IMG/VR virus record: IMGVR_UViG_3300027899_001695
Coordinates: 36,208 to 100,207 of that record
Source: a virus
Direction: 5' to 3' (one strand)
Length of the DNA: 64,000 nt
The notes under the pieces: model-generated
Database searches by the model: none
What the model was told of the DNA's origin: nothing
Seen by the model: only the letters and a program-made list of their open reading frames with translations
Shown: positions 20,063-47,788 of the stretch, piece after piece
Layout of the letters: every line of letters begins with the position of its first letter
Position numbering within the stretch: the first letter of the stretch is position 1
Program-made: the position numbers and the translations under genes

Positions 20063-21114
20063 TAAGAAAAGACTTAGGTAACTATATGCGTTGGAAAACA
20101 ATCCAACAACAAGGACCTTGTGAAGGACAATTTGATGGAATATGCCAAGGACCGAAGGGTATTGATGTACCAATGAGGCAACTTGCACATCGTAGACCTA
20201 AAGATAGAGAGGATGCTGAAAGAAGACTTATGTCTATGAACCAAGCTCCCAATAAAAAACCAGGGCATAAACCTAGGTTATATGATTCCTTGAATAGACC
20301 TCATGCGTATCGTCATTTATGCCCTACTTGCCATCTCCATCATGATAACCATATGTTTGATGAAGGCTATCAAGAGCCTAAATGGGTGCTGGATAATAAG
20401 TTTAGGCAGCTTATTAGAGATAGAAATAAGAATAAACAAAAGATAAAAAGGCATGGTGGAATTGTTAAATCTATAAATGACTTTGTAAGAAAATTTGATA
20501 ATACTATTGACCCAAATGAGCCAAGGCAAACAAGGTATTTACATAATTTACCTTCTAGAGACACTCATATTAAATATGAAGACCCGTTTGACCCTGAAAT
20601 TTATATAGAAGAAGAATCAGATGAGGAGTACGTTCCTGAAATGCACACCCAAAATACAAGATTGCCAATAGAAACAAAAAGATATAATAAGATAATGGAT
20701 AGAATAAGCCCTCATGGAAGTCAAAAGATATTGGATAAAATTGTGGGTAAAGAAGATATACCATATGCGAAATCATTATGTAAGTCTATTAATCAATTTG
20801 TAAGAAAGTTTGATACTTCTTATCTACCACATGAAGGAACGGCTAAATATAAACCACAGAACGAAGCAAGAGCAAGAATAAATAACAAGCTTGGACCACA
20901 CTCTATGTCCAATCGTAAGCAAGAAGTAAATCCAGCCTCTTCACCACCTATGGGGTTTGGACAAAAGACTAATCCTGAAGAGCATATAGTACCTAACTAT
21001 GTACCAAAGGATAAGACCCATGCTTTCAAGTATCGTGGTAGGACATATGATGCAAGCAGAATGACACCCGAAGAGCTTTCAGACATATTATCAGAGATGG
21101 AGCAACAGATATAA
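20059..21114 (+). CDS. Putative internal head protein with HNH-like zinc-binding segment
   Basis: C...C, LAH...LCPTCHLHHD; two KSINxFVRKFD repeats. Confidence 0.5.
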   Translation: MIRKDLGNYMRWKTIQQQGPCEGQFDGICQGPKGIDVPMRQLAHRRPKDREDAERRLMSMNQAPNKKPGHKPRLYDSLNRPHAYRHLCPTCHLHHDNHMFDEGYQEPKWVLDNKFRQLIRDRNKNKQKIKRHGGIVKSINDFVRKFDNTIDPNEPRQTRYLHNLPSRDTHIKYEDPFDPEIYIEEESDEEYVPEMHTQNTRLPIETKRYNKIMDRISPHGSQKILDKIVGKEDIPYAKSLCKSINQFVRKFDTSYLPHEGTAKYKPQNEARARINNKLGPHSMSNRKQEVNPASSPPMGFGQKTNPEEHIVPNYVPKDKTHAFKYRGRTYDASRMTPEELSDILSEMEQQI

Positions 21115-22568
21115 TGAAGAATATTCTTCGTGACGTAGAACAAGAAATTGAGAGACGTGGCATCCAAGAAGATGATGTTGCAGATATTGTACAAAGTGTG
21201 CCTGCATTAAAGAATCGGAGGATAGTGGGCGGTTATGCAAGTGTAATTATGGTAGATAGAGAAGGCCACAAGATTACCAAAGAAGCTTTAGTTGATGCTA
21301 CAAAGAGATTTATGGCTGAGATTTATTATCGCCCCATAAATGTGTTTCATTGCTTGACGGGGGAAACTCAAATAAGAACTACCTCAGGTTATAAAAATAT
21401 AGAAGCAATTAAAGTAGGAGATAAGGTTTATACTCATACTGGAAAGAGCCAAAAAGTAACTAAAACGATTATGCATGAAAACAATGGCTTGGCTTTAAGA
21501 TTAGAATTAGAGAATGGTGAAGTTATTCGTGTAACAGACGAGCATCCTATCTTAACTAAACGTGGGTGGGTAAAAGCAGGTGACTTAACTACTCAAGATA
21601 TTCTTCTGCATTTAGAATCGTCTGCTAAAGAATACCATGATAAAGTACGAGGAAAGTCTTTAGTAGGTATATTTGGTATAGAGAAAGCTAAAGAAGTGTT
21701 ATTAAAAATGCGGGGAAAAAGAGAAAGTTATACTGTTACAGAAAAACATAATTCGCAACAAAGAAAAGGGCATACATGGCAAGAAGTATATGGTCATAAT
21801 AAACCTGATTATGGTGGCTGTGTTGGAGAAAAGAACCCTCAATTTGGTAACAAGGGTAGAATAACTGGAGAAAAGAACCCTAACTGGAACAATGGGGCTT
21901 CTCTTATAGCTTATGGAATAGGGTTTACTAAAGAATTAAAAGAAAATATACGAAAAGCGTGTGACAACAGATGCTTCTTATGTGGAGAACAACCCAAATA
22001 TAGTCTTTCAATACATCATATTGATTACAATAAGAAGAATAATCAAGAAGATAATTTAATTGCATTATGTAGAAAGTGCCACATGAAAGCACATAATGAA
22101 GAACGATTGGCTATTAAGAACGGAACTAATATCAAGTCTATCGAGAAGTTTTGGTATACTGGAAAGGTGTATAATCTTGAAGTAGATATAGACCACACAT
22201 ATGTAGGAAAAGGTATTATCTACCATAATTCAGATGTTACAGTTGGAAGGATACTTCCTAAGTGGGCAAACCCAAAAACAGGTCAGATAGTAGTAACGCA
22301 TGTAGATGATACTGGATGGTATATAGTTGCAGAAATTCGTGATGATGTTGAGATTGCTGATAAGGTATGGGAAGAGATAGAAAAAGGAAACTTACGAAGT
22401 TTCTCAATTGCAGGGTCTTCTAAAGATAAAACTGAGGGATATAAAGATGGGAAGTTTATGACTGAAATAACAAAGTTAGACATATACGAAACTACGATTT
22501 GCGAAGAGCCCGTTTGCCCTATGGCTAAATTTGACTTCTTCTATAATCCTAACGAAACTATAATGTAA
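21114..22568 (+). CDS. HK97-family prohead protease, interrupted by an intein
   Basis: IVGGYASVIMVDREGHKI, catalytic His (NVFH), VWEEIEKGNLRSFSIAG (catalytic Ser), LDIYETTICEEP. Confidence 0.88.
   Translation: MKNILRDVEQEIERRGIQEDDVADIVQSVPALKNRRIVGGYASVIMVDREGHKITKEALVDATKRFMAEIYYRPINVFHCLTGETQIRTTSGYKNIEAIKVGDKVYTHTGKSQKVTKTIMHENNGLALRLELENGEVIRVTDEHPILTKRGWVKAGDLTTQDILLHLESSAKEYHDKVRGKSLVGIFGIEKAKEVLLKMRGKRESYTVTEKHNSQQRKGHTWQEVYGHNKPDYGGCVGEKNPQFGNKGRITGEKNPNWNNGASLIAYGIGFTKELKENIRKACDNRCFLCGEQPKYSLSIHHIDYNKKNNQEDNLIALCRKCHMKAHNEERLAIKNGTNIKSIEKFWYTGKVYNLEVDIDHTYVGKGIIYHNSDVTVGRILPKWANPKTGQIVVTHVDDTGWYIVAEIRDDVEIADKVWEEIEKGNLRSFSIAGSSKDKTEGYKDGKFMTEITKLDIYETTICEEPVCPMAKFDFFYNPNETIM
21351..22229 (+). 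mobile_element. Intein with HNH endonuclease in prohead protease
   Basis: CLTGET start, TDEHPILT block B, GEKNPNW repeats, CFLCG...HHIDYNKKNN...LCRKCH, ends VYNLEVD...IYHN followed by Ser. Confidence 0.92.
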
Positions 22569-23547: not shown

Positions 23548-23862
23548 TTATACTCCTTTAGAGACATCTTTCAAACTATCTAGCTTTGTATTAATTCCTT
23601 TTCCCCACATTTTTATTTTAATTGGTTCGTTATTTCCAAACTTCTTGTATACTCTGCATATCTCACAGATGGAAGTATCATCCCCTGTTGCACCGAAGTC
23701 ATTGAGTTTGCAGTAAGTCCCTTCAATTTCCCAACAATGTAGGAACGTGTATTTAGGTGCAGGACAGTCACGCTTAATCATCTCAGGACAATGGCACTTG
23801 TCCCAACAGGCTTCTGTGTCTTGCCATACACTTGTTTTGGTTTCCATTTCTATCTTATTCAT
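23548..23862 (-). CDS. Two-CW-motif Cys-rich protein (only convincing minus-strand gene)
   Basis: CWDKCHC...CPA...CWEIEGTYC...CEICRVY; AGGAGG RBS; own promoter. Confidence 0.75.
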   Translation of the reverse strand: MNKIEMETKTSVWQDTEACWDKCHCPEMIKRDCPAPKYTFLHCWEIEGTYCKLNDFGATGDDTSICEICRVYKKFGNNEPIKIKMWGKGINTKLDSLKDVSKGV

Positions 23863-23919: not shown

Positions 23920-23971
23920 TAGAGCAAAAGGCGTAATCGGATATACGCATAAATGCTTAGAGTATGGGGTA

Positions 23972-24001
23972 GGTAGCTTCAAAACCCCCCTGTGCTATAC
24001 T
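23972..24001 (+). promoter_or_regulatory. Repeated promoter GTAGCTTCAAAACCC-TGnTATACT, copy 1 of 10
   Basis: Invariant 17-bp spacing GTAGCT to TATACT in all copies. Confidence 0.8.
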
Positions 24002-24066
24002 GTCCACAGAGAGAAAAAATGCGAAGAAAAAGACAAAAAGCAATTAAAAATGTGGAGAAAAAGAAA

Positions 24067-24270
24067 ATGCTTATTAATGAGATTAAATGTACTCTTGCAG
24101 AATGCCCTCATTATCATGCTTGGCATAATGGTAAGTATCCTACTGATGGAAGATTGTGTGCTTATTATCCTAATTTAAGTACTACTCATTGTAATAAATG
24201 GACAAGGATAGATGAATTTAAGTTGTTTTTAGCAATTCATAAGGAGAAACGAAATGTCGAGAAGTTATAA
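24067..24270 (+). CDS. Cys-rich microprotein, DPFK-tail family
   Basis: Ends WTRIDEFKLFLAIHK; GGAG RBS before ATG 24067. Confidence 0.6.
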   Translation: MLINEIKCTLAECPHYHAWHNGKYPTDGRLCAYYPNLSTTHCNKWTRIDEFKLFLAIHKEKRNVEKL

Positions 24271-24487
24271 ACATATTGCTTGTTATACAGACCATAATGC
24301 TTCTACATGGAGAAGAAAGCGTTGGGCATCCAAAGCTATTCGTAGGAAGATACTTGAGTTAGTAGATGGTAATATGTATAAGAAAATATATGAAACTTGG
24401 GCTATTTGTGATTATCGTTTTAAGGTAGGATTTAAGATACCTAACCATTGGTCATACGAAGATTTAGCTAAAGCAAGGAGAAAGTAA
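24254..24487 (+). CDS. Small basic protein (MSRSYK type)
   Basis: GGAG RBS; recurrent phage pattern MSRSYK...YKKIY..W.I.DY. Confidence 0.6.
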   Translation: MSRSYKHIACYTDHNASTWRRKRWASKAIRRKILELVDGNMYKKIYETWAICDYRFKVGFKIPNHWSYEDLAKARRK

Positions 24488-24703
24488 ATGGAATGTAAAG
24501 AATGTAACAATGCTATTGTGCATGTTGATGGAGTAACGGCCCATATACAAGGAGAGTGGCACGTAGTAGAACGTAAAGCACGTATGGTTAAAGCACATAA
24601 ATGCGGTTATCATTTAAACTGCTTTGAGTATAGGTTTGACCCTTTTAAACGATGTCTATTAATAAAAAAAGCGGAGAAAGAAGAAAATGAAAACAGAGAT
24701 TAG
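24488..24703 (+). CDS. Cys-rich microprotein, DPFK-tail family
   Basis: CKEC...; FDPFKRCLLIKK. Confidence 0.6.
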   Translation: MECKECNNAIVHVDGVTAHIQGEWHVVERKARMVKAHKCGYHLNCFEYRFDPFKRCLLIKKAEKEENENRD

Positions 24704-25322
24704 ATGGTGTTCAGATATAGGACTGTATGTACTTGATAGGTCGAAAGACTCTTGTGCTTATCGTACTACATTTTGTGTCTTGAACTGTTATAACAATAAG
24801 ATGTATAAGGTATTCAAGAATATGCTCAAGAAAGATGTAAGAAATGAAGCATATTGGGCATCACTTACACCAAAGGAATTTGCTCGTGGATTAAGATATA
24901 AGCGTCATAGTGTAGCAAGATTTAGGTTCTGTGCAAGAGGAGAGCCGTTTGATGATGGTAGTGCTGTTGTTAAGATAGCAGATATAGTATCATCATTTCC
25001 AAATATACTATTTCAGCTTCCTACAAGGGCATGGCGAAATCCTTTAATGAAACTATTAATTGAAGATAGAGTTATGAAGTTTCCCAATGCAAGAGTAATA
25101 GCTTCAATTGACCCATCAAATACAGAGAAAGAATTATTAAGTGCTCATGAATGGAGAACATTCTTCTTTGGTGATGATACTAAGCATCCATATGAGAATG
25201 AAAATCCTAATCGAGTATTTAGATGCCCAAAAACATGGCAACATATGAAAGGGCATTGTGAGATATGTGAAGCAGGGTGCTTTAATAAGGAGAAGAAACA
25301 CGTATGGCTAAAACAGCATTAG
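24687..25322 (+). CDS. Phage gp88-like radical-SAM-related protein
   Basis: CAYRTTFCVLNCY Cys cluster, RFRFCARGE, C-terminal CP...CEICEAGC. Confidence 0.65.
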   Translation: MKTEIRWCSDIGLYVLDRSKDSCAYRTTFCVLNCYNNKMYKVFKNMLKKDVRNEAYWASLTPKEFARGLRYKRHSVARFRFCARGEPFDDGSAVVKIADIVSSFPNILFQLPTRAWRNPLMKLLIEDRVMKFPNARVIASIDPSNTEKELLSAHEWRTFFFGDDTKHPYENENPNRVFRCPKTWQHMKGHCEICEAGCFNKEKKHVWLKQH

Positions 25323-25576
25323 AAATAAAAAAAGATAGGTTGTTGGGGAGACGTTATGTGCTTTATAGTGATATAAAGTGGGAATGTACTCATGACAATA
25401 AAATAATAAATAGGCTTAAAATATCAACAAAAGATGGAAAAAGTTTATATCCAAACCATTTCTATCTAAGCGACCATGACTATCTTACTGTACCAATGAT
25501 GTGTGAACAATGCTTCAAGAAAAAGCGATTGTTACTGGCATTGGGTGGAAGAAAGTTAGAACGGATAGATAAATGA
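25304..25576 (+). CDS. Cys-containing microprotein
   Basis: CEQCFKKKRLLLAL tail. Confidence 0.5.
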   Translation: MAKTALEIKKDRLLGRRYVLYSDIKWECTHDNKIINRLKISTKDGKSLYPNHFYLSDHDYLTVPMMCEQCFKKKRLLLALGGRKLERIDK

Positions 25577-25770
25577 TAAGTATAGAACATGCACAAGCCT
25601 TATGTGAACTTGTATCAGAAATACCGAAATTTCAAAATTGTAACCATCCTATCTTTTGCAAACTTGCTCCACAAGGTGGTTGTGTTGTGTGGCATAATAT
25701 AGACCCATTTAAACGCAAGTTACTGGAGATAAAATATAAGGAGAAAAATGAGCGAAACAGTATCAAATGA
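25573..25770 (+). CDS. Cys-rich microprotein, DPFK-tail family
   Basis: WHNIDPFKRKLLEIKYKE. Confidence 0.65.
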   Translation: MISIEHAQALCELVSEIPKFQNCNHPIFCKLAPQGGCVVWHNIDPFKRKLLEIKYKEKNERNSIK

Positions 25771-26062
25771 TTATTTCTGTACTTTGGAATTAGATAATAT
25801 CAAGAAATGCAGAGTACGTCTTAATACAGGAAGTCTTATGGGGTTAGGCAATAGGATTGTCTGCTCTCATAAATACAACATGTATAAAGAACTGAATGAC
25901 CCAAAGCAGTATGGCTGTGAACGAGTGTCTTCTATTGGGCAAGTAAAGTCAGAACTACTTTGTCTTATTCAAGACCCATTCAAGAAGACTTTGCTAAAAG
26001 CAAAAGCAAAAATACTATTCAAAGAATTGGCACGTAAGGAGAAGAAAAATGAAAATTCTTAA
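25748..26062 (+). CDS. Cys-rich microprotein, DPFK-tail family
   Basis: IQDPFKKTLLKAK. Confidence 0.65.
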   Translation: MSETVSNDYFCTLELDNIKKCRVRLNTGSLMGLGNRIVCSHKYNMYKELNDPKQYGCERVSSIGQVKSELLCLIQDPFKKTLLKAKAKILFKELARKEKKNENS

Positions 26063-26651
26063 AACAGAGGACATTAAAACAGCACTCGTAGCATGGCTAA
26101 AAACAGCATATACAGACAATTATGAGATAGATGCAGGACATTATTATACATCGATTCGTATGAAAGATGTAGGTAGTGTAGAGTTACATTTTCTTAAGAG
26201 ACGCCATATTCGTGTAAAAGGAATGACTGGAGAGCAGTTAATTGGTGGTGGTGTTTCGTTTAATGGTAGGCGTGATGGTGATATGCTTGTTCATGGTGGT
26301 GCTAAGAGCGATTTTGGCGTCTTTGATGAAGTAGAGTTTAAAAGACGTATTGATGCTCGCTTTAAGGGCAAGATAGAACAAGCCGAAGCTTCTAAGAAAT
26401 CACAGCAAGAATGGAAAGATAAATGTGTCACTTTAGACCCAATACTAACAGCCATTGGGTTTACTCTCGATAATAGATATTCTTGGCAAAAAGCATGGGA
26501 GTATGACCGTAAAGTAAGTATAAATCTGCGTCAAGGGTCTAAATTAAGTATAGACCTGCATAGTCAGAATATATCCGAAGAGGAAATACTAAAATTGGCT
26601 AAAGTAATAAAGGAGACTTTAAGTGGAGAACTTACAAGTAATACTATCTGA
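26049..26651 (+). CDS. Hypothetical protein
   Basis: ORF with GGAG RBS. Confidence 0.6.
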   Translation: MKILKTEDIKTALVAWLKTAYTDNYEIDAGHYYTSIRMKDVGSVELHFLKRRHIRVKGMTGEQLIGGGVSFNGRRDGDMLVHGGAKSDFGVFDEVEFKRRIDARFKGKIEQAEASKKSQQEWKDKCVTLDPILTAIGFTLDNRYSWQKAWEYDRKVSINLRQGSKLSIDLHSQNISEEEILKLAKVIKETLSGELTSNTI

Positions 26652-27006
26652 ATGTCTTAAAATGGTAGATATAACAGGAGAGGTTAAAGCTACTGATAGA
26701 GAGTTTCACTATATCTTAGATGGTATGGTGGTAGAAAATAAACATGTGATTAAACATATGTCTAAAGATATCATAGCTAAACCTGTCTTTCAGTTGTTGC
26801 ATGATTGGCTTATTTGTGATAAAATGGATTATATCATGAATAGGCAACATATCATGACAATAGCATCAGGATATTTAAGCAGATATAAAGATATATTTGC
26901 TGTTGATTTATATCCTTTAACCGCAAAAATAAAAATAGAAGAACCAGTACTAATTAAGGAGAAAAAACGTGGAAAATTCAAAAAAGCTATGCCCAAACTG
27001 CAATAG
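26623..27006 (+). CDS. Hypothetical protein
   Basis: ORF with GGAG RBS. Confidence 0.55.
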   Translation: MENLQVILSECLKMVDITGEVKATDREFHYILDGMVVENKHVIKHMSKDIIAKPVFQLLHDWLICDKMDYIMNRQHIMTIASGYLSRYKDIFAVDLYPLTAKIKIEEPVLIKEKKRGKFKKAMPKLQ

Positions 27007-27319
27007 AGAACTCGCTCCCGCAGGAGTAAACAGTGCAAATGAGTTAGCCTATCAATGTGGGCATTGTCTCTTGACTGGTGGTACTCTTGCAGAAATGGCA
27101 AGAATAGCAATAGAGAAAAAGAAGCGAGTAGAAGCTACCGCTTCCTTATTCAAATGCAAGATGTGTAATGAGAGTGTGCCATCTACCAAAATAAATCTTG
27201 CTGATACATTTCCAACTGGAATGTTAGAACTTATACATGTTTGTGATGATTGTATGCCACTTTTGGCTATATCGGAAGCAAAACGTAGGGAGAAAATAAA
27301 TGACACAAGAAGAGCGTAA
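26969..27319 (+). CDS. Double zinc-ribbon protein
   Basis: CPNC, CGHC, CKMC, CDDC. Confidence 0.6.
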   Translation: MENSKKLCPNCNRELAPAGVNSANELAYQCGHCLLTGGTLAEMARIAIEKKKRVEATASLFKCKMCNESVPSTKINLADTFPTGMLELIHVCDDCMPLLAISEAKRREKINDTRRA

Positions 27320-27692
27320 AGAGTTTGATGAACTTATATGTGGTTCAACCTGTTTTTCAAGACCTTGTTGTATAAGACGTACTGCCGCACATCAATTAGT
27401 ATATTCTGATGGCATATACCATTGTTCTATGCACTCATATTGTTCACGAGTAACGCCTGTTCGTGGTAAGATTGCTAAATGGGTAGGTCGGTATGAGGGC
27501 AAGAATGATGCTTTTAAGATTAACTTAATAAATCGTAAACTCAAAGCCTTAAAAACTGAGATTAAGGCAAGCACAATGAAACTGATTACACAAAATGGTA
27601 AAACATGGGTGGAAGTAAATGGTATGGTGGTATCGCCATCACGCTTTTCTTCGCAATGGTGGAAATTCAAGTTTGAGCGAGAAGAGAGGTAG
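27300..27692 (+). CDS. Cys-rich protein, DPFK-tail family variant
   Basis: NDAFKINLINRKLK; stop codon is the TAG inside promoter repeat 2. Confidence 0.55.
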   Translation: MTQEERKEFDELICGSTCFSRPCCIRRTAAHQLVYSDGIYHCSMHSYCSRVTPVRGKIAKWVGRYEGKNDAFKINLINRKLKALKTEIKASTMKLITQNGKTWVEVNGMVVSPSRFSSQWWKFKFEREER

Positions 27693-27717
27693 CTTCAAAA
27701 CCCCTGTGTGCTATACT
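27688..27717 (+). promoter_or_regulatory. Repeated promoter, copy 2 (followed by hairpin aacaggtgg-aaaa-ccacctgtt)
   Basis: ggtagcttcaaaacccctgtgtgctatact. Confidence 0.8.
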
Positions 27718-27850
27718 AAAGAACAGGTGGAAAACCACCTGTTACTGATAGTAGGAGAGAAAAGAAATGTTTTTATTTATCACAATAAGTTTAATTTTGG
27801 TACTGACTATGATGGTTATGTGGGCTGTATATCACATTGTGGAGTAATAC

Positions 27851-28072
27851 ATGATGACTTATAGGAGTTATACAATGAATTTATCTAAACAACACTTTAA
27901 TGAACTATGCCAATTAGCAGACTGTATTGATAAATGTGAATATAATAAAAGTAGAAACTGTGTCGCTTGGATTTTAATAGACCCATTCAAGCGTAAATTA
28001 CTTGAAGTAAAATATACAAATGCGGAGAAAAGAATGAAATGGAAAAAGCAAAACCAAATATTGGAAATATAG
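27851..28072 (+). CDS. Cys-rich microprotein, DPFK-tail family
   Basis: WILIDPFKRKLLEVKY. Confidence 0.65.
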   Translation: MMTYRSYTMNLSKQHFNELCQLADCIDKCEYNKSRNCVAWILIDPFKRKLLEVKYTNAEKRMKWKKQNQILEI

Positions 28073-28332
28073 AAATTGAACAGGTTGCTAAAATGCTTAA
28101 TATGCAACCAAAGATTAAAACAACTAAACGATGTATTATTGAGGCTTTTAGTAGTCTTATAATATGGTTAGAGGAGCCTTGCAAGGAAGAATTGCATTTT
28201 CCTGAAGAAGGTCGTGACCATTATATTCGGTATGTGAAAGGACAATATACACATCGTAAATATTGCCCCATATGTTGGAAAGAATTTAAGGAGAGTATAG
28301 CACATGATGACATTAAAAGATTTCATGGATAA
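28039..28332 (+). CDS. Hypothetical Cys/His protein
   Basis: WLEEPC...HRKYCPICW. Confidence 0.55.
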   Translation: MEKAKPNIGNIEIEQVAKMLNMQPKIKTTKRCIIEAFSSLIIWLEEPCKEELHFPEEGRDHYIRYVKGQYTHRKYCPICWKEFKESIAHDDIKRFHG

Positions 28333-28990
28333 GAGAAAACAGGGCGAACAGCCTACAACTGAGGAAGCACTTGAAATGCCTGTGGCTCAAGCTACTATTA
28401 AACGTATTGAGCGTAAAGAGGATATGGATGAACACCGCAAAGGCGTTCTAACAAGGGCAAAGATACTGGCAAAGTTTGCAGGAATTAAATTTAAGGCAAG
28501 GGAACTGGTAGACGAATGGATACTTGTTACCTATGACCTACCTGCTACTGATGCAGGTAATAAGGCTCGTCAGGATTTTCTTAGACTTGCACCACGAATA
28601 GGTGCAGTCATGCACACGAAATCTGTATACCTTATGCCTAATACGAATGAGTGTCAGACTGCTACTGTTGATTTGGCAAAGATTGGGAATGTCTATATTT
28701 GGACTTCCAAGGCCAATGATGAAGCATCAAAGAAACAGCTAACCGACCTTTATGACGAACGAATAAAAGGCGGAATAAAAGAAATAAAAGAGAGGATGTC
28801 TTCTATTCGTAAGCATATGGCTAAGGAACAGAATGGCATGGCTAATAGGATGGTAGAGAAAACGATTGATATATTCAATAATAGTGTATTCTCTGTTGTT
28901 CAACGTGGCAATGCTGAACTGTATAATCTGCTTGCTACAATGCGTGACGAATTACAGGAGTTACAGCATGAAGTGGAAAGCAAGGTCTAA
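28304..28990 (+). CDS. ChrB-N / PaaX-middle (Cas2-like ferredoxin fold) domain protein
   Basis: WILVTYDLP...RQDFLRLAPRIGAVMHTKSVYLMP followed by helical region. Confidence 0.55.
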   Translation: MMTLKDFMDKRKQGEQPTTEEALEMPVAQATIKRIERKEDMDEHRKGVLTRAKILAKFAGIKFKARELVDEWILVTYDLPATDAGNKARQDFLRLAPRIGAVMHTKSVYLMPNTNECQTATVDLAKIGNVYIWTSKANDEASKKQLTDLYDERIKGGIKEIKERMSSIRKHMAKEQNGMANRMVEKTIDIFNNSVFSVVQRGNAELYNLLATMRDELQELQHEVESKV

Positions 28991-29159
28991 AGCAGAGCAG
29001 AGAAAGCTATGCTTACTCTCTGAGTGTACTTATTCTGAGTGCTACAATAGAAACACTAAACGTGTGGCTTATTGTAGCATTTGGGATGAAATAGACCCAT
29101 TCAAAAAGTTATTACTTGAAATAAAATATAAAAAACAGGAGAAACAGAAAAATGGCTAA
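28968..29159 (+). CDS. Cys-rich microprotein, DPFK-tail family
   Basis: WDEIDPFKKLLLEIKYKK; GGAG RBS before ATG 28968. Confidence 0.65.
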   Translation: MKWKARSKAEQRKLCLLSECTYSECYNRNTKRVAYCSIWDEIDPFKKLLLEIKYKKQEKQKNG

Positions 29160-30219
29160 AGACACACCGATTACTACATCAATGATTAGGATGCGTCCTG
29201 CAGAAATTGAGGAAGCTATCGTAGGTAATTACAAGAAACGTGTTCCTCGTGCAATTATACTTGGTTCACCTGGGAGTGGAAAGACTTCTGTGCTTTATCA
29301 TATAGCAGACAACATCTTAAAAGTACCACGTTTTACATTTCAGGCTACTCTTTATGACCCTACTGAGGTTAAAGGATTGCCTGTAATGACCGAAGAAATG
29401 CGTGATGGTAAGTTGGTTAAGATTGCAAAATTTCTTCCTTTTGAAGATATGCCGTCTTGCCCTGAGGGACTTCTTATCATTGATGATATAACACATTCCG
29501 CACAACAGACACAAAATGCGTTCATGCGTCTTATTCTTGAGGGAATAGCAGGGGCATGGGATTTGGGCGGTTTGTATCCTGTTGCTACTGGTAATAGGGC
29601 GATGGATAGGGCAGGTGCAAAAGACCTGCAGACTGCTATGGCTAACCGCTTTTGGTTCGTTGAGTTTGAGGACAACTACTCCGATTGGCGGTCATGGGCG
29701 GTACAGAATGACATTCATCCTGCTATCATTGCTTACTTGGGTACTCCGTTTGGTCAAGATTGGCTAAACAAGTTTGATGCAACACATCAGATTAATCCGA
29801 CACAACGTACATGGGAAATGGCTTCACACCATATGAAGTCTATGTCAAGCAACGAAATACTCATGCGTAAATGTATTGCAGGGTGCATTGGTGATGAAGC
29901 TACTGCAAAATTCATGGGATGGATGAAAGTCTATTCACAGCTTCCCGACCTTAAAAAGGTTATGGCAGGAGAAGACATTTACGTTGATAATGTTGACGTA
30001 ATGTATGCTACTGTTTCCGCACTTGTTTCAATGGCAAAAAATGCGGATAAAAGAAAGGTTGCCTTTCAACGTTTAATTGACTATGCTTTGGGTATTCCTG
30101 ATGGATACGTTGAATTGGGTGCTTTGATTGGTAAGGACTTGTTCAAACTTGATATGGCTACGTTTGAGAAACTTAACCTTGATAAGTGGGAGTCACGTTT
30201 CGAAGAGATTGTAATCTAG
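29152..30219 (+). CDS. MoxR/dynein-related AAA+ ATPase
   Basis: Walker A GSPGSGKT, Walker B LIIDDI, ATGNR, AMANRF, TQRTWE. Confidence 0.85.
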   Translation: MAKDTPITTSMIRMRPAEIEEAIVGNYKKRVPRAIILGSPGSGKTSVLYHIADNILKVPRFTFQATLYDPTEVKGLPVMTEEMRDGKLVKIAKFLPFEDMPSCPEGLLIIDDITHSAQQTQNAFMRLILEGIAGAWDLGGLYPVATGNRAMDRAGAKDLQTAMANRFWFVEFEDNYSDWRSWAVQNDIHPAIIAYLGTPFGQDWLNKFDATHQINPTQRTWEMASHHMKSMSSNEILMRKCIAGCIGDEATAKFMGWMKVYSQLPDLKKVMAGEDIYVDNVDVMYATVSALVSMAKNADKRKVAFQRLIDYALGIPDGYVELGALIGKDLFKLDMATFEKLNLDKWESRFEEIVI

Positions 30220-30234
30220 TACAAATGTACTATA

Positions 30235-30495
30235 ATGCAGGAGAGTAAAATGAACAAAGAATGTAATGTTAGGGAAATATGCCCATTTGATTTGGAGAAA
30301 CTGGCTATCAAACAAGACACATTCCATCAAAAATGTTCCCCTGATGATACATTAAAAAAGGATGGCGACTTTTGTAGTAACGTATCATACTGTTGTGTGA
30401 TATGTTCTACAAAAGGTTGTGATGCACTAAATAAAGAAAGATGGGGCTTCAAAAGAACCTTATTAAGGATGAAATTAAATGCAAAGTCAACTTAA
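30235..30495 (+). CDS. Cys-rich microprotein, DPFK-tail family variant
   Basis: WGFKRTLLRMKL. Confidence 0.55.
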   Translation: MQESKMNKECNVREICPFDLEKLAIKQDTFHQKCSPDDTLKKDGDFCSNVSYCCVICSTKGCDALNKERWGFKRTLLRMKLNAKST

Positions 30496-30724
30496 TGACT
30501 ACCCAAATGCATTCCAACAATTAAACTTAGCACAAAAACAACGGTTATGTTTATATTGTTCTACACATGGTCTTTGTAAGCCAGCTAAAGATAAAACCCA
30601 ACGAATAGGAAATGGGTGTTATACAGGCTTTGAACAAAGTAAATGGATATGGTGTGGTCAATGGTTGGAGTTAGATTGGTTTAAAGTAGTTTTAATAACG
30701 AGGAGTAAAAATGAAAGTAAGTGA
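30479..30724 (+). CDS. Cys-rich microprotein, DPFK-tail family variant
   Basis: WLELDWFKVVLITRSK. Confidence 0.6.
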   Translation: MQSQLNDYPNAFQQLNLAQKQRLCLYCSTHGLCKPAKDKTQRIGNGCYTGFEQSKWIWCGQWLELDWFKVVLITRSKNESK

Positions 30725-30902
30725 TATACTAAATCGTCTCAAAGATACAAGAGGATTTATCAATGAACGTAAAATCTATGAAGAAGACGGTGAGTGTGAT
30801 GAAGACGAGTTAAGCAACATGGAGTTTATGCTTGAGGGCGTTGAGAGTGCTATTGAGTTCTTTGAGGAGTGGTTAGCAGAAAATGAAGACTTTGAGGAGT
30901 AA
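30711..30902 (+). CDS. Small acidic protein
   Basis: GGAG RBS; Glu/Asp-rich. Confidence 0.55.
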   Translation: MKVSDILNRLKDTRGFINERKIYEEDGECDEDELSNMEFMLEGVESAIEFFEEWLAENEDFEE

Positions 30903-31077
30903 GTAAATGAATGAGTTAGAACTGTTCTTTAGTGACTTAAATGAACAAGCAAAAAAGAAAGTAATGGAGTTTTATGGAATGGAAAGTGCAGGTGATGGTA
31001 ATTGGGAAATACTGCCTTTGTGTATTCTATGCAACGAAGATACAGAATATGTAAAAAGAGAAACGCAGGAGAGTTAA

Positions 31078-32184
31078 ATGGACGTAAAAGTAATTAGGGC
31101 AAAGGTTCAGTTAATGCTGAACAGACCATTCTATGGTTCACTTGTTGCAAGATTGCAATTAAAACCTTGGGATGGTTATACATTTGCTACTGATGGAGAG
31201 TTTCTTTATGTTCCTGCAAAGCATGACTACGATAAAGATACTCTTGAGTCAGTAGTAGCACATGAAACATGGCATTGTGCGTTGCTTCATCCATTTCGTA
31301 TTGGAAAACGTAACCATATGCTGTGGAACATTGCTTGTGATTATGCAATCAATGACCTGCTTCAACGTGATGGCTTCAAAATTCATAGTACGTGGCTGTA
31401 CGATAAGAAATACGCAGGTATGAGTGCAGAGAAGATTTATGAGAAGCTACCAAAAGATATGCAAATGCCAAAAGAATTGATAGACTTGATTGAGCGTCTT
31501 GATAAGGCAAGTAAGGGCAAAGGTAATAAGGGTAAGAACAAGTTTCCATCCAAATCTAATCAAGATTTAGAGCAAGAATGGAAAGAGAACATGGCTTCTT
31601 CTATTGAACGCAATCGTGGGCATCTTCCTGCAGGATTTGAGGAACAACTGACAGACTATATGTTCCCACAAATTCCTTGGCAAACTCTTCTATTCCGCTT
31701 TTTACAAGTCACTAAAGGTATGCAAGACTTTAGAGCATATCCGTTCCATAGGGCTCATATATGGCGTGGTATATTCTTGCCATCGTTGCAAGGTGACTTC
31801 ATTGAAATCAACGTGGCATGGGATACATCAGGAAGTATGAGCAACGAGGAACTATCAAAGGGACTTGCGGAAACAAGGGGAATGTGTGCAAACTTCGGTG
31901 GTTATCTCATTCATCTTTTTATGTGTGATGCGGATTGTCATTCGGTTACAGATATAACAGATGATTCAGAAGTACCAACAGTAGTAACAGGTCGTGGTGG
32001 TACATCATTTGTTCCTGTATTCAAGAAGATACAAGAATTGCAGTTAGATGATTTGCCACTTGTTTACTTTACTGACTTGGATGGTGAGTTTCCAAAAGAA
32101 GCAAAGGATGATACGCTATGGGTTACTTCCGAAAGGAGCAAGCATACTAAAATTCCATTCGGAGAACTTATCGTACTCAATTAA
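31078..32184 (+). CDS. DUF2201-type putative metallopeptidase with VWA-like domain
   Basis: HETWH (HExxH), WNIACDYAIN, DTSGSM MIDAS, GRGGTSF, YFTD. Confidence 0.85.
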   Translation: MDVKVIRAKVQLMLNRPFYGSLVARLQLKPWDGYTFATDGEFLYVPAKHDYDKDTLESVVAHETWHCALLHPFRIGKRNHMLWNIACDYAINDLLQRDGFKIHSTWLYDKKYAGMSAEKIYEKLPKDMQMPKELIDLIERLDKASKGKGNKGKNKFPSKSNQDLEQEWKENMASSIERNRGHLPAGFEEQLTDYMFPQIPWQTLLFRFLQVTKGMQDFRAYPFHRAHIWRGIFLPSLQGDFIEINVAWDTSGSMSNEELSKGLAETRGMCANFGGYLIHLFMCDADCHSVTDITDDSEVPTVVTGRGGTSFVPVFKKIQELQLDDLPLVYFTDLDGEFPKEAKDDTLWVTSERSKHTKIPFGELIVLN

Positions 32185-32201
32185 ACAAGAAAGGAGAGCA
32201 A

Positions 32202-32549
32202 GTGAGAATTACTGCAAGATATTCCGAAGCAAATACACATATGTATTTGTATCATGTGCCAAAATATGAATTGGCAAAGCTACTTGAAACAAAACAGTTT
32301 AGTGTTAAAGTAAGCGTGATGCGTAAGCCTACTGCTAAACAGAGCCAATACTATGATGAAAAAGAGTCTGTTGGTTATCATAAGGTTACGCTATCGCAAC
32401 AAGTAGCTACAGGCAGGTTAGATATAGTCTTGACGTCACATAGACTTACTGAGAAAGACATACTTGCCTTGAAGTTACAACCAATTCAACAGGCCGTTGA
32501 GAAAGAACGGCATCAAGCAATTACAGCCAAATTGAAAAAGGCTACCTAA
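32202..32549 (+). CDS. Hypothetical protein
   Basis: ORF with GGAG RBS. Confidence 0.55.
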   Translation: MRITARYSEANTHMYLYHVPKYELAKLLETKQFSVKVSVMRKPTAKQSQYYDEKESVGYHKVTLSQQVATGRLDIVLTSHRLTEKDILALKLQPIQQAVEKERHQAITAKLKKAT

Positions 32550-32553
32550 AATT

Positions 32554-32600
32554 GGGCGGGTCATTCGTTTAATTACGTTTGACTCGCCCTTTTTTTGTTT
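32554..32600 (+). terminator. Intrinsic terminator
   Basis: gggcgggtca...tgactcgccc followed by T-run. Confidence 0.75.
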
Positions 32601-32602
32601 CC

Positions 32603-32631
32603 GTAGCTTCAAAACCCTGCTGTGGTATACT
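32603..32631 (+). promoter_or_regulatory. Repeated promoter, copy 3
   Basis: gtagcttcaaaaccctgctgtggtatact. Confidence 0.8.
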
Positions 32632-32845
32632 GTCAGGGTAGAGAAAAAACAGATAGGAGAGATAAAATGCCAAATATAAATGGGTACTTAGTATCAACAA
32701 ACTGTCTTGATGCACCTGTTCAAATAGAAGAAATAAGAGATACAGATGAAGACTTGATAATCTTATTTGACAAACCTTTTACTTTTGCACTTTGGTTTAA
32801 TAAGAAAGAAAAAGAAATCTTAATTGATATTCTTAATGGAGCATA

Positions 32846-33211
32846 ATGATGGCAATTAGAGAAGTAAAACTATTTCAAATACCGCCAATAATAGCAGTTA
32901 TGCCTGTTATTCCAGTAACTACAACACCATGTAACAAGTATAGGTATAACGAATACGAACCTGAAATGACAAGATTTCATCCTGATGATATGACAGGAGA
33001 AGATATACCTTGGTACTTACAACCTGAAATGCAAGGCGTAGCAAAAGAGATATATGATGCTACTTCAAGTGATAGAACAAGTGCTTTTGCTTGTAAGGCT
33101 TGTGGTGTTATACCATCAGTAAGGGATAGACGCTATGTAGTTAAGACAGGCAATATTGAGTTAGCTTGTAGTGCCGAATGTGTGGCTACAATAAAAAAGC
33201 GGAAAGGATAA
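32846..33211 (+). CDS. Zinc-finger (TRASH-like) protein
   Basis: CKACG...ACSAEC. Confidence 0.5.
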   Translation: MMAIREVKLFQIPPIIAVMPVIPVTTTPCNKYRYNEYEPEMTRFHPDDMTGEDIPWYLQPEMQGVAKEIYDATSSDRTSAFACKACGVIPSVRDRRYVVKTGNIELACSAECVATIKKRKG

Positions 33212-33486
33212 AATAAAATGAATGATTGGTTATTTAACTTTTGGTGGCAACAAAAAGTAATTTCAATGTGGTTATTGCTACCAGTTATACTATTTGGTAT
33301 AATAATGCTAATAAAAATAGTGTGTAAAAAGGAGAAATAAATGAAAACGTATGAAATGCCAGTAACATTAACAATCAAGTTTGAAGCAGAGAATGAGAAA
33401 CAAGCTATGGAATTGCTTACATTCATGTTCATCAATCCTAAATTTGAAGAAAAGTTTGAAGCAAGGCTATTAGATGTTGAAGAAGA

Positions 33487-33828
33487 TTGGGGCGAGTTGC
33501 AGTTACTCAAATGAAAGAAATAACAACTATTGTATGTAAACTTGAACAGACTGAAAGCAAAGAGTATCACGCTATTGAAGCAGGTGAATGTAAACGTGGA
33601 CAAGGACTTATATATGACCACATGACAGGATATAGGTGCTTGAGAGAGAATGGCACGTTAGGACATTGTATTAGAGTAACATCTGATGGCAGTATGTTTA
33701 CGAACTTCAATGTGCGTGATGGCTTTAAGGTTAGCTTAGTAATCAATGACCTTAATCAATTAAAGACAAGCACAATAAAAAATGCGGATAAAAGAAAAGC
33801 ATTTATATGGGATGGCACAGTAGGGTAG
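33487..33828 (+). CDS. Cys-rich protein, DPFK-tail family variant
   Basis: RDGFKVSLVINDL; stop inside promoter repeat 4. Confidence 0.5.
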   Translation: MGRVAVTQMKEITTIVCKLEQTESKEYHAIEAGECKRGQGLIYDHMTGYRCLRENGTLGHCIRVTSDGSMFTNFNVRDGFKVSLVINDLNQLKTSTIKNADKRKAFIWDGTVG

Positions 33829-34849: not shown

Positions 34850-35611
34850 ATGTGCAGACTATCAGCAATCATTCAACTCGGAGAGCAGAAGGCAACACCG
34901 CTTGAGATTAAACAACTACTTATATCAATGGAAGATGGTGGCAAGGATGCGACAGGTATCGCTTTTATAACACCTGATGATATAATTTATGCCAAACAAA
35001 AGGGAAAGGCAAGTGATGTTATATCAAGCACCTTTGAAAGTGATATAGAGCAATATAGTGAGAAAGCTAATGCAATTATATTGCATACAAGGGCATCTAC
35101 TCATGGTTCACCTAATAACAATGACAACAACCATCCTATCATTGGTGAGAAGTACATACTGGTACATAATGGAATTGTTCATACAGATAGAAAATATCCT
35201 GCTAAGGGTGAAACTGATAGTGAGCAAATGCTTCGGTCTATTGAGTTTAACGGAATTGATAAAGGATTGTCTAAGTGTTCAGGATGGGTAGCAATGATAT
35301 TTGCTGATATACAGAACCTTAAAGACTTTTATTGGTTTTCAAATCCAACAGCCAGTATGTCAGCAGGACATGATAAGGAACGTGGTATATGGTTTATAGC
35401 ATCAACCTATTCCATTATTACTCAAAGTGTCATACCAAATACTATCGAATACAGTATAGCGAAGAATTCGCTATATAAATGTGACCTATCAACAGGTAAA
35501 ATGAGCATTGAGAGTAAGCCTGTGGTAAAGCAAAATTACTATGCTAATTCATCATTTGATTGGGATGGTTTTTATGCTAAAGGAAAATATAATAAATCAT
35601 ATGCTTACTAA
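34850..35611 (+). CDS. Class II (Ntn) glutamine amidotransferase
   Basis: N-terminal Cys (MCRL), GKDATG, HTRASTHG, NNHP, HNG, TDSE. Confidence 0.88.
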   Translation: MCRLSAIIQLGEQKATPLEIKQLLISMEDGGKDATGIAFITPDDIIYAKQKGKASDVISSTFESDIEQYSEKANAIILHTRASTHGSPNNNDNNHPIIGEKYILVHNGIVHTDRKYPAKGETDSEQMLRSIEFNGIDKGLSKCSGWVAMIFADIQNLKDFYWFSNPTASMSAGHDKERGIWFIASTYSIITQSVIPNTIEYSIAKNSLYKCDLSTGKMSIESKPVVKQNYYANSSFDWDGFYAKGKYNKSYAY

Positions 35612-35641
35612 GGTAGCTTCAAAACCCATTTGTGGTATGAT
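35612..35641 (+). promoter_or_regulatory. Repeated promoter, copy 5
   Basis: ggtagcttcaaaacccatttgtggtatgat. Confidence 0.75.
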
Positions 35642-35681
35642 GATAGCATAGCAAAAATAAACAGCAGGAGAGTAAAACAGT

Positions 35682-36875
35682 ATGGCAAAGAAACTAAATC
35701 TTACTTATGGTGCAGACCCTGAATTCTGCATATATGAAAGGATAACCCAACGTACTGCCGATGCATGTCATGTTATAGCAGGTGCAAGCCTATCAAGTCC
35801 CATCGGACATGATGGATGCTCTTGTACAGGTGAATTAAGGTTGCCACCTACTCATAGTGCCGAAAGTGCATTTAAGGCATTGAAAAATCTACTTAAAGTA
35901 GAATTGCCGAAACGCCTTAACCTAATAGAATATGACATTACAGCAGGTTCAGGTACTGAACACCAATGTACTGGTGGTCATATTCATATAGGTGGTTTGG
36001 GAATGAACCCAACGCATCAAATACTTAATAATATTTGGCGTTTCATATCTACACCACTTAATAGCATTTCAAGGACTGCGAATAGGCATAGGGCTTATGG
36101 GAATAAAGACGACTATCATCGGCAAGAGAAGTATGGCGGATATGAATTGCGTAGTCCGCTTTCATGGATTGTAACGCCACGCATTTCAAAGGGCGTATTC
36201 GTTATAACTTCTATTCTTGCTAATAATGCTACTACTGATTTCCCTGATTGGGATGCTCTTATTGCAGTAGCAAATAAGCAGGAACAGATTGTCATATCAT
36301 CCTATCGCAAAGAGATTGCATGGTTTCTTTCAAGTGGTACTAAACTTGAAGATATAAGCGTTATTAAGGCATGGCGTAGGCGTAATATAAGTAAGTGTAA
36401 GACTACATCACTTACTACTGTATTTCACATCATTTCATTCTCACGTGATATGAATATGAATGAGATATTCTTTACGACCAAACGCAATCCTGTTTGTCGT
36501 ATTCCTTTGCGTGTAGTCGGTGCAAGGTCAGGCCGCACATCTGAAAAAGCGGTTTTAATTCCCAATGATTGGACTTTTGTTCTACCTGATATACTTTGGG
36601 GCGTAAGGATAATCAAATGGGGACATCAGGCTGTAGGGCTTTCAAGGGCGTTGCGTGAAGATGCCGTTGAAGCGAAAAGGTTCTTCATTCAATTCATAAA
36701 GATATTGAATAGGCAAATAAAAAAACGGCAGGAAGAAGATAAACTTCCTGTTGTTCCTGTTAATCCAATAGCAACAGCATCGGTTAGAATGGAAGTAGTA
36801 GAACGTGATGATTATGACCATTGTACTGATTGTGATGATGATAGTGATTGTGATAACTGCCAGTACAGTAATTAA
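35682..36875 (+). CDS. phiEco32-type COOH-NH2 ligase (amidoligase)
   Basis: GADPEF, GHDG, ELR, GGHIHIG, YG, YELRSPLSW. Confidence 0.8.
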   Translation: MAKKLNLTYGADPEFCIYERITQRTADACHVIAGASLSSPIGHDGCSCTGELRLPPTHSAESAFKALKNLLKVELPKRLNLIEYDITAGSGTEHQCTGGHIHIGGLGMNPTHQILNNIWRFISTPLNSISRTANRHRAYGNKDDYHRQEKYGGYELRSPLSWIVTPRISKGVFVITSILANNATTDFPDWDALIAVANKQEQIVISSYRKEIAWFLSSGTKLEDISVIKAWRRRNISKCKTTSLTTVFHIISFSRDMNMNEIFFTTKRNPVCRIPLRVVGARSGRTSEKAVLIPNDWTFVLPDILWGVRIIKWGHQAVGLSRALREDAVEAKRFFIQFIKILNRQIKKRQEEDKLPVVPVNPIATASVRMEVVERDDYDHCTDCDDDSDCDNCQYSN

Positions 36876-38717: not shown

Positions 38718-38909
38718 ATGATGAAAAAACAGATGAAAGGTAAAACAACCAGAGCTAAGTCTAACATGGATATGGTTCGTATAGCTAAGTGTGCAAACTG
38801 TGGTAAAAGCTATGAACAATCGGATTACTCTATACTATGTGATGCGATAACAAAGTATAAACCAGTATGCTCATTAGCTTGTAACAAGGCAATAGGTCAG
38901 GTACGATAA
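38718..38909 (+). CDS. Zinc-finger microprotein, possibly leaderless
   Basis: CANCG...CSLAC; ATG about 6-9 nt after the -10 box. Confidence 0.55.
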   Translation: MMKKQMKGKTTRAKSNMDMVRIAKCANCGKSYEQSDYSILCDAITKYKPVCSLACNKAIGQVR

Positions 38910-40706: not shown

Positions 40707-40735
40707 TTGACAACTTAGTTATTTTGTGGTATACT
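40707..40735 (+). promoter_or_regulatory. Consensus sigma70 promoter TTGACA-N17-TATACT with extended TG
   Basis: Direct match. Confidence 0.85.
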
Positions 40736-40741
40736 AGTGGT

Positions 40742-40936
40742 ATGAATAAGAAATCGCCTAAAATACATGACACTATATGCCCAGGATGTGGTGTGTCCCA
40801 CCAAGCATATAAGCCCCAAGAGTACTGTATTGCTTGTTGGGTAAATTTTAGCTCTTTCCAAAGATTCTTAATACTAAAAAAAGCGGGGAAAAATGAAAAG
40901 AAAACAAGTAAGAAGACATTCGATAGATGTCTGTAA
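40742..40936 (+). CDS. Zinc-finger microprotein
   Basis: CPGCG...CIACW...FQRFLILKK. Confidence 0.55.
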   Translation: MNKKSPKIHDTICPGCGVSHQAYKPQEYCIACWVNFSSFQRFLILKKAGKNEKKTSKKTFDRCL

Positions 40937-41069
40937 AGAATGCCACATATTTTATACTATGAGTTCATTGGGAATTTGTTTTCCATGTTGGGAGAAAAAG
41001 AACGAATTTGCACAATGGCTCATATTAAAAAAGGCGGATAAACAAGATAATCCGAAGGATTTGAAATGA
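40893..41069 (+). CDS. Zinc-finger microprotein (not in ORF track)
   Basis: CKEC...CFPCWEKKNEFAQWLILKK; paralog of next ORF. Confidence 0.6.
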   Translation: MKRKQVRRHSIDVCKECHIFYTMSSLGICFPCWEKKNEFAQWLILKKADKQDNPKDLK

Positions 41070-41245
41070 ACCTAACAACTAAAGACACAACTTTTATCAA
41101 AAAAAGAACATTTCTATTCAAATGTAAAGATTGTGGTAATGTTACTTTAAGTAGATTGAAGTATTGTTTCTCTTGTTGGGACAAGAAGAACGAATTGGCT
41201 AGGTTTCTCATAATAAAAAAAGCGGAGAAAAAGAAAGTACTATAA
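41066..41245 (+). CDS. Zinc-finger microprotein (not in ORF track)
   Basis: CKDCG...CFSCWDKKNELARFLIIKK. Confidence 0.6.
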   Translation: MNLTTKDTTFIKKRTFLFKCKDCGNVTLSRLKYCFSCWDKKNELARFLIIKKAEKKKVL

Positions 41246-41451
41246 TGTTTGAAATGAGAGATACTTATACTTGTCATATTTGTGGCTTACCTTGTCGTTC
41301 TTTCCTTCGTTATATTAATAATGTAGTAGTTTGTGCCTATTGTCAAGATAAGGAGTCTACAGATATAAGGACCTATTTAATGATTAAAAAACTAAGAAAT
41401 GAAGACCCAACTGAATATAGAGGAGGATTTGATTATGATTGGACCGAGTAG
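41245..41451 (+). CDS. Zinc-finger microprotein
   Basis: CHICG...CAYC...RTYLMIKKL. Confidence 0.55.
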   Translation: MFEMRDTYTCHICGLPCRSFLRYINNVVVCAYCQDKESTDIRTYLMIKKLRNEDPTEYRGGFDYDWTE

Positions 41452-41902
41452 CAATGAGGAGCAGTTTGAGCGAAACCAGATAATAATAAATAAGGTATCC
41501 CAAGGCAATACAATGGAGTCAATTGGAAAGGAATATGGCATATCCAAGCAGAGAGTGGAGCAAATCTACCGCAGAGGGTTCAAAAAGGACCCAGACCTCA
41601 TGACAATTAATGAATATTGCAACAAAAAGCACATAAGCAGGAGCAAAATTGACAAGCAAATCAAGAATGGAGAGATAAACTTTGTCAAAGTGGGCAATAA
41701 ATACCTCATCAAAACTAGCTTCAAAATCACCAAAATCTGTGGAAATTGCGGAATAGAGTATGAACCTGACCGTAGATTTAGGTACTGTTCAGAAGATTGT
41801 AGAGATAATGCATTAAAAGAGCAGCATAAGAGGGCTCTATGGCGTAGATTTAATCGTTTGAAGAAAGAAAAAGATAGACTTGTACAACCAGAAGTGGTAT
41901 AA
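41399..41902 (+). CDS. DNA-binding protein: sigma70 region-4-like HTH, excisionase-like HTH and zinc finger
   Basis: TMESIGKEYGISKQRVEQI; LMTINEYC...IKNGEINFVKVGNKYLI; CGNCG...YCSEDC. Confidence 0.7.
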   Translation: MKTQLNIEEDLIMIGPSSNEEQFERNQIIINKVSQGNTMESIGKEYGISKQRVEQIYRRGFKKDPDLMTINEYCNKKHISRSKIDKQIKNGEINFVKVGNKYLIKTSFKITKICGNCGIEYEPDRRFRYCSEDCRDNALKEQHKRALWRRFNRLKKEKDRLVQPEVV

Positions 41903-47787: not shown

Positions 47788-47788
47788 A

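Follow-up and report, generated by a model that had tools for sequence, protein, structure and literature searches.

Expanded sets of zinc mini-proteins are already known as a kind of phage gene family. Bacillus phage G carries a lineage-specific expansion of approximately 35 small zinc ribbons, and the authors suggested that these serve as specific transcription factors or bind DNA in a structural capacity (Iyer et al. 2021, Viruses 13:63, PMC7824862). This expansion is the closest published precedent for the genes analyzed here, which lie in IMG/VR record IMGVR_UViG_3300027899_001695, an uncultured virus of 100,207 bp from a freshwater metagenome assembly. The stretch that was analyzed, hereafter the window, is the last 64 kb (64,000 nucleotides) of that record, and coordinates are window positions unless labelled genome, L001, L002, or G001. 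Between 24019 and 33828, ten small, basic, Cys-rich genes on the plus strand share a short helix motif, D-P-F-K-x-x-L-L, in a tail that follows a Cys-rich head. As in phage G, many diverged copies of a tiny Cys-rich protein occur in one phage genome. Unlike the phage G zinc ribbon, one class of the copies (class 1) lacks paired CxxC knuckles and was modelled by AlphaFold2 (AF2) as all-helical, at moderate confidence. The genes further differ from the phage G set in having no sequence similarity to any deposited phage, in numbering approximately 10-15 copies in a 100-kb phage, and in carrying a constant helix common to two head classes. The family itself is new. We tentatively read it as an expanded panel of small zinc-clamped regulators or adaptors whose common contact helix may touch one ligand.

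Other described systems share single features with the locus. A MoxR-like ATPase (29152) and a DUF2201 protein (31078) in the window belong to the MoxR AAA+/VWA-metallopeptidase pair of phages, known from group 2.2 jumbo phages and represented by PHROG 1297 and 1314; the pair has been proposed to act in virion assembly (PMC7824862). It is found widely in phages that lack the microprotein family, and descriptions of it mention no small tagged partners. In concept, the genes are also like the effector-associated domains (EADs) of bacterial MoxR-vWA ternary conflict systems, small shared helical modules that couple variable proteins to a core containing MoxR and vWA (Kaur et al. 2020, eLife 9:e52696, PMC7159879). 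Three copies do lie next to the MoxR-vWA pair. By definition, however, one EAD copy is fused to a core component, whereas a hidden Markov model (HMM) of the tail, run against the proteins of the genome, found no large protein carrying it; homotypic coupling of the EAD kind is therefore not seen. Moreover, the tail consists of one 15-residue helix and is not a domain, and it belongs to a phage rather than to a cellular defence system.

Treble-clef fingers of the FCS/TRASH/YacG type likewise place a helix directly after a small zinc-binding unit. Their C-x2-C ... [FY]-C-x3-C/H pattern is nevertheless missing from alignment A2, which comprises six window copies and their metagenome homologues (21 sequences), and the only Pfam treble-clef match in the family was TRASH_HVO_1752_C to 24488 (E 0.022; 15 bits versus a cut-off of 27). 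The ZAS anti-sigma domain, a helical bundle of approximately 90 aa with the pattern H-x3-C-x2-C, gave no Pfam match to the family. Class 1 instead has H-x4-C with the next Cys at a variable distance.

Ten genes and their shared tail

The ten genes are listed below with their head class, tail, and, where applicable, the E-value from the HMM of A2.

24019..24270, plus strand: class 1, 83 aa (P0001); tail IDEFKLFLAIHK; E 7.7e-14
24488..24703, plus strand: class 1, 71 aa; tail FDPFKRCLLIKK; E 2.1e-13; orthologue P0007
25573..25770, plus strand: class 1, 65 aa; tail IDPFKRKLLEIKY; E 1.3e-22
25748..26062, plus strand: class 2, 104 aa; head C-E-R-V-S; tail QDPFKKTLLKAK; missed by the class 1 HMM (E 1.2)
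27300..27692, plus strand: class 2, 130 aa; head C-S-R-V-T; tail NDAFKINLINRK, then approximately 50 extra residues
27851..28072, plus strand: class 1, 73 aa; tail IDPFKRKLLEVKY; E 4.8e-23; AF2-modelled copy
28968..29159, plus strand: class 1, 63 aa (P0002); tail IDPFKKLLLEIKY; E 2.8e-20
30235..30495, plus strand: tail-only relative, 86 aa, eight Cys; tail WGFKRTLLRMK
30479..30724, plus strand: class 1, 81 aa; tail LDWFKVVLITR; E 2.2e-18; orthologues P0006 and P0018
33487..33828, plus strand: class 2, 113 aa; head C-I-R-V-T; tail RDGFKVSLVIN

An earlier, sequence-only reading of this DNA had proposed ten open reading frames (ORFs) with a common tail, and all ten are present, on the plus strand and where it placed them. 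The start it gave for the first gene, 23992, is more likely 24019, which yields the 83-aa form and makes this the first gene downstream of a promoter-like repeat. For the copy it placed at 28968, the ORF listing begins at 28866; the 63-aa form is the one present in databases.

In a six-frame scan of the window, the regular expression D[PWGAE]FK.xL[LIV] gave eight matches and a looser form gave ten, and all of them fell at 24.2-33.8 kb inside the ten ORFs. Elsewhere in the 100,207-bp genome, the loose motif occurred only as GFKNTLAL, in the primase, and as DPFKRLIA (2412), both inside larger proteins. The bare core FKxxL[LIV] had only four more occurrences in approximately 128,000 six-frame residues, compared to at least four extra matches in approximately 3,300 coding residues, so the motif is not a product of chance. 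The kinship previously suggested for DPFKRLIAWK (2412) is unsupported because its score (E 0.048) was no better than that of the reversed-sequence null (0.0096); its host protein has 172 aa and no Cys-rich region ahead of the motif. All ten family proteins are basic, with isoelectric points of 7.7-9.8 and net charges of +1 to +11, and their tails contain 1-6 Lys or Arg in 14 residues (at least three in nine of the ten proteins).

The tail is selected at the protein rather than the DNA level, since codons differ at identical residues and the distance to the next start varies. Specifically, across 14 tail codons, amino acids were on average 42% and nucleotides 49% identical, and different codons encoded 52% of the identical tail residues, in agreement with the synonymous variation noted earlier. 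The motif lies 8-53 codons ahead of the stop, 11 to >50 nt separate the motif from the next start, and the motif DNA does not resemble a Shine-Dalgarno sequence. For the one orthologue pair with DNA, 25748-26062 and its L001 counterpart, the ratio of non-synonymous to synonymous substitution rates (dN/dS) was 0.11, showing purifying selection on this pair.

The six class 1 copies were alignable along their whole length, with four conserved Cys and a Trp; the Cys spacing is L-C-x-L, x2-8, C, x3 or more, C, x7-10, C. Across A2, the four aligned Cys, the Trp, and the D, F, and K were invariant or nearly so. The A2 HMM recovered all six copies (E 1e-13 to 1e-23) and missed 25748, 27300, 30235, and 33487 (E 1.2 or worse; reversed null, 0.15). 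Three of these four share a head motif, C-x-R-V-[ST]-x2-G, with 10-15 more residues ahead of the tail. Aligning class 1 with the other four copies using hhalign gave a probability of 84% and E 7e-6, over 15 tail residues only. Because the profiles align only over the tail, the picture of different heads on one tail holds between the classes. Within class 1, by contrast, the head is one conserved scaffold with variable loops. The same distinction applies to the Cys patterns, which were described as divergent: they are so between head classes, while the six class 1 copies keep four aligned Cys and the Trp. Conservation of one fold along the whole length, which the sequence-only reading took as evidence against its view, was thus found for six copies and not for the other four.

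Conservation within class 1 is concentrated in the tail. In alignment A3, the tightest class 1 subfamily, 11 of the 13 tail positions from I43 to Y55 were at least 90% conserved; in the head, this level was reached at 6 of 42 positions, namely L19, the four Cys, and W40. The charged, probably exposed tail positions K47, K49, E52, and K54 were as conserved as the hydrophobic ones. Between orthologue pairs, identity was 0.88-0.94 in the tail versus 0.36-0.54 in the head.

The AF2 model of 27851..28072, computed on A2, had a predicted local distance difference test score (pLDDT) of 72.7 and helices at residues 13-23, 38-42, and 45-72. The last helix opens exactly at the P of D-P-F-K, and confidence was highest in helix 1 and at the start of helix 3. 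The tail was helical in both AF2 predictions, this one and that of a class 2 copy (25748-26062). Foldseek searches of PDB and BFVD returned no matches at E ≤0.001, and a wide VIA-align search gave a best Z of 4.5, to generic helical hairpins. Within the window, distant class 1 relatives were detected through their C-terminal half (hhalign E 1e-4, probability 58%).

40724..41451, plus strand: four tandem small CxxC...CxxCW proteins with tail F..[FW]LI[LI]KKAxK; the A2 HMM matches 40724-40936 (E 3.2e-5)

Transcription of the family genes appears to be organized around a promoter-like repeat.

23969..24001, plus strand: promoter-like repeat GTAGCTTCAAAACCC-N5-6-TGTGNTATACT (repeat family D1), heading the first operon with family genes

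Ten copies of this repeat were located, at 23969, 27685, 32599, 33821, 35609, 37296, 38500, 38680, 39141, and 39862, and the first three head operons holding family genes. The layout is that of an extended -10 element plus a fixed upstream box, which we take to resemble the MotA box (TGCTTtA) of T4 middle promoters. Scans for sigma-70 promoter and terminator consensus sequences over 23.4-34.2 kb showed no enrichment over shuffles. Among public sequencing runs, no RNA data set was listed as a holder of this DNA. Divergent from the first repeat is a 104-aa Cys-rich ORF (23548-23862, minus strand), among the very few minus-strand ORFs.

Spread and turnover among relatives

A HMMER search of 1.84 billion representatives returned 19 cluster representatives at E ≤1e-3, all of 59-104 aa and free of fusions, from JGI, ENA, and Logan metagenome contigs. 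Individual paralogues have orthologues of their own. Searches of Pfam, PHROGs, NCBIfam, and PDB-sequence profiles gave no match at curated thresholds, with nothing in PDB below E 0.3, and the ESM Atlas gave no usable feature match. Similarly, tblastn of 27851-28069 against 50,697 phage records found no match at E up to 1, and the family was not found in the prokaryote genomes of 185,579 species. Viral contig scans using the ATPase alone or the microprotein alignment yielded no relative; a metagenome contig scan yielded one contig of 1,278 bp only. The family is real, undescribed, and seen only in viral and metagenomic DNA, in agreement with the earlier reading, which did not recognise it as one already described.

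Copy number was shown to vary between relatives: ten in this phage, one in G001, and three in tandem at one site of L001. The L001 contig is syntenic with 25304-26100, and its three tandem members stand where the window has one (25573..25770). At L001:241-837, the third tandem member ends K-E-K-N-E-R-N-S-I-K, as does 25573-25770, and this common end suggests duplication or recombination at the tail. In relatives' contigs from freshwater and sediment runs (two studies), 24002-24252 is swapped for 139 other letters. Relatives' contigs are also not colinear over 30191-30711, which holds two members between the ATPase and DUF2201 genes, and one contig joins 29130 to 25738, that is, the tail of 28968 to the end of 25573. 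These joints are hints only because they were found at 80% likeness, some with short sides.

The best relative is G001 (IMG/VR, IMGVR_UViG_3300037067_004979; 106,335 bp), whose ATPase is 53% identical and whose single family member adjoins the primase. Many diverged paralogues in one genome, with few or one in relatives, is the pattern expected of a lineage-specific expansion.

G001 has small tailed proteins of its own. Of its 96 small proteins (e.g. L002:3904-14016), 24 end in [MLI][ML]xx[LM], a [KR]xxMLxKL-like tail, versus 6 of 96 interior control windows. Some of these proteins lack Cys, and many surround the MoxR/DUF2201 pair. Their Leu codons vary, but CTG GAG AAA, in the middle of the tail, also provides a Shine-Dalgarno sequence for the following gene, which starts 2-16 nt further on. 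A likeness between the G001 sequence D-F-K-Y-K-L-M-M-L and the window tail was considered and is unsupported, as the tail-only HMM found nothing above the reversed null.

Possible roles of the common helix

Under the reading favoured here, a family of small (63-130 aa), basic proteins that probably bind zinc would have expanded in this lineage to give the ten genes, which would be transcribed jointly with many other pre-late genes from one class of phage-specific promoter-like repeats. The only fixed residues of the head would be those of the metal scaffold, with four Cys, a Leu, and a Trp in class 1 and another Cys frame in class 2. The tail would be a constant basic helix running from an Asp-Pro cap, D-P-F-K-x-x-L-L-x-x-K, and may serve as a contact surface common to all copies that touches one common ligand. 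Fast-evolving heads would give each copy a second specificity of its own, and related phages would acquire, lose, and rearrange members of what amounts to a panel of small regulators or adaptors. From the sequences, we infer that the family binds zinc and that the helix is an interaction surface. As a first guess, the helix may contact nucleic acid, or else some conserved component of the transcription or replication apparatus of host or phage.

We favour the helix as a shared contact surface because the charged tail positions are conserved like the hydrophobic ones and because the tail occurs on two head types. The guess of nucleic acid or this apparatus as the common ligand is in line with the suggestion of Iyer et al. 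for the phage G zinc-ribbon expansion. The position of the single G001 member beside the primase is a further point of support.

Several observations weigh on the other side. The tail residues F, L, and L might do no more than pack against the head, and basic charge is common among small phage proteins. Tail conservation within the tight subfamily could in part reflect recent duplication or gene conversion; the DNA repeats D2/D3 are 63-77% identical, and the 29130-25738 joint occurs in one relative. The class 2 AF2 model had a pLDDT of 42, with an uninterpretable head. Finally, Foldseek against PDB and BFVD, VIA-align, and PDB profiles revealed no fold or sequence relative of known function.

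A stronger form of the shared-surface idea is possible, if doubtful when taken as a whole. Here, D-P-F-K-x-x-L-L would plug fast-evolving zinc-clamped heads into one shared partner, either the RNA polymerase or replisome of the host or the MoxR/VWA-peptidase machine of the phage, making the genes an exchangeable adaptor library. The same principle, with other tails, would extend to many large uncultured phages, including G001 with its M-L-x-K-L.

Alternatively, the tail may be nothing but the last helix of one small fold. In that case the expansion would be an ordinary one, its members binding independently and sharing no partner, and class 2 would be a strongly diverged form of class 1, recognisable only by the helix. 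The whole-length alignment of six copies with four conserved Cys fits this account, as do the D-P dipeptide, a classic helix N-cap, the hydrophobic nature of F/L/L, and the AF2 confidence peaks at helix 1 and the start of helix 3. Two similarities between the classes also fit: the N-terminal helix of 27300 (E-F-D-E-L-I-C) resembles class 1 E-H-A-x-x-L-C, and the C-x-R-V-[ST] of class 2 stands where the last class 1 Cys is. A purely structural helix accounts less well for K47, K49, E52, and K54, which are conserved like the hydrophobic residues while the head surface varies freely. Nor does it readily explain why the tail persists on heads that have a 10-15 residue insertion and lack the Trp. 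On balance, we consider a purely structural role rather unlikely.

The sequence-only reading had drawn attention to two neighbours of the family, and both were confirmed by profile matches.

29152..30219, plus strand: MoxR-like AAA+ ATPase; AAA_5 (8e-7) and phrog_1297 (1.7e-54)
31078..32184, plus strand: DUF2201_N putative metallopeptidase and DUF2201 VWA-like protein; 5.5e-29 and 1.2e-16, and phrog_1314 (2.6e-79)

The stop of 28968..29159 overlaps the ATPase start by 8 nt, and 30235..30495 begins 16 nt past the ATPase stop. Between the basic family members and DUF2201 is a very acidic protein of 63 aa that lacks a Cys cluster (30711-30902). The tail might dock the copies on the ATPase or the DUF2201 protein while the heads deliver targets. 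Consistent with such docking, three members abut the ATPase or lie between the pair, two of them between the ATPase and DUF2201, and the members beside the pair belong to the same promoter-defined operon (27685-32599). The G001 pair is similarly ringed by small Cys-rich proteins with a common, but different, C-terminal motif. The distribution of the genes nevertheless argues against docking on these neighbours. Seven of the ten copies occupy other positions or operons, and the ATPase occurs in 669 deposited phage records and DUF2201 in 283 metagenome proteins, versus 19 family representatives. Nine other viral MoxR/DUF2201 loci, which carry a 28-31% identical ATPase, have no family member within 10 kb. 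G001 has its ATPase and DUF2201 genes directly adjacent and its sole family member approximately 50 kb away, and a relative's contig lacks colinearity over the two family genes that separate the pair in the window. When searched with the tail HMM, the ATPase did not outscore the reversed-sequence null, and the top 25 matches did not include the DUF2201 protein. The published view of the pair as a virion-assembly chaperone (PMC7824862) points the same way, and we regard docking on this pair as improbable. A blastn search of the ATPase-DUF2201 stretch against deposited phages returned no matches.

Lastly, the tail might be preserved for its DNA, which would serve in ribosome binding, in regulation, or as a point at which cassettes recombine and are shuffled. 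In favour of this, D2/D3 span the tail in four copies, the 28968 tail is joined directly to the end of 25573 in one relative's contig, and the different G001 tail (M-L-E-K-L) overlaps the next gene's Shine-Dalgarno sequence. Such a DNA-level cause is nevertheless largely refuted by the codon differences, the low nucleotide identity, the variable distance to the next start, and the lack of Shine-Dalgarno likeness described above, and it is very improbable.

Genome setting and significance

Nearly every gene of the record is on the plus strand, and the record encodes a portal; deposited phages include no close relative of it. At 21114-22568, a prohead protease is split by an intein-like insert with an HNH endonuclease, based on PHROG matches to the protease and to HNH. 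An array of 25 tRNA genes occupies 47699-50560 (plus strand). A GATase_6 class II glutamine amidotransferase is followed by a phiEco32-like COOH-NH2 ligase type 2 (34850-36875). The phage has its own transcription factors, as evidenced by a single protein joining sigma-70 region 4, a helix-turn-helix, and a MYND-like Cys cluster (41399-41902) and by a full-length NusG/KOW homologue (45191-45697). A 21-nt repeat, AAAAAATGCGGATAAAAGAAA, is present at 30036, 33777, and 38553 (100% identical) and at 38924 (95%); two of these copies sit within coding sequence, namely the ATPase gene and 33487-33828.

Cys makes up 3.5% of residues in the proteins of this phage of ≤140 aa versus 1.3% in larger ones. 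A separate family of at least five proteins of 60-75 aa is encoded at 42136-45191, with further loci at 38718-38909 and genome 27582-27845. These proteins carry C-x-Y-C ... Y-C-x-x-x-C/H (TRASH/YacG-like) and an end of their own, L-x-x-L-K-x-A, and one gave a sub-threshold Pfam match to the gyrase inhibitor YacG (E 1.2e-4; 22 bits versus a cut-off of 25.5). They were rejected as relatives of the ten-gene family, the profiles being unrelated.

Host-takeover and counter-defence factors come mainly from small pre-late phage proteins, most of which belong to no known family. In this 100-kb phage, approximately one-eighth of the small genes fall into one undescribed set with a fixed helix and free-running heads, and G001 follows this layout with a different tail. 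Should the helix prove purely structural, the set would be one more lineage-specific expansion of zinc mini-proteins. If instead the helix is a common plug, the set would offer a tiny natural scaffold for binders, and finding the socket would give a whole class of phage 'dark matter' genes a mode of action.

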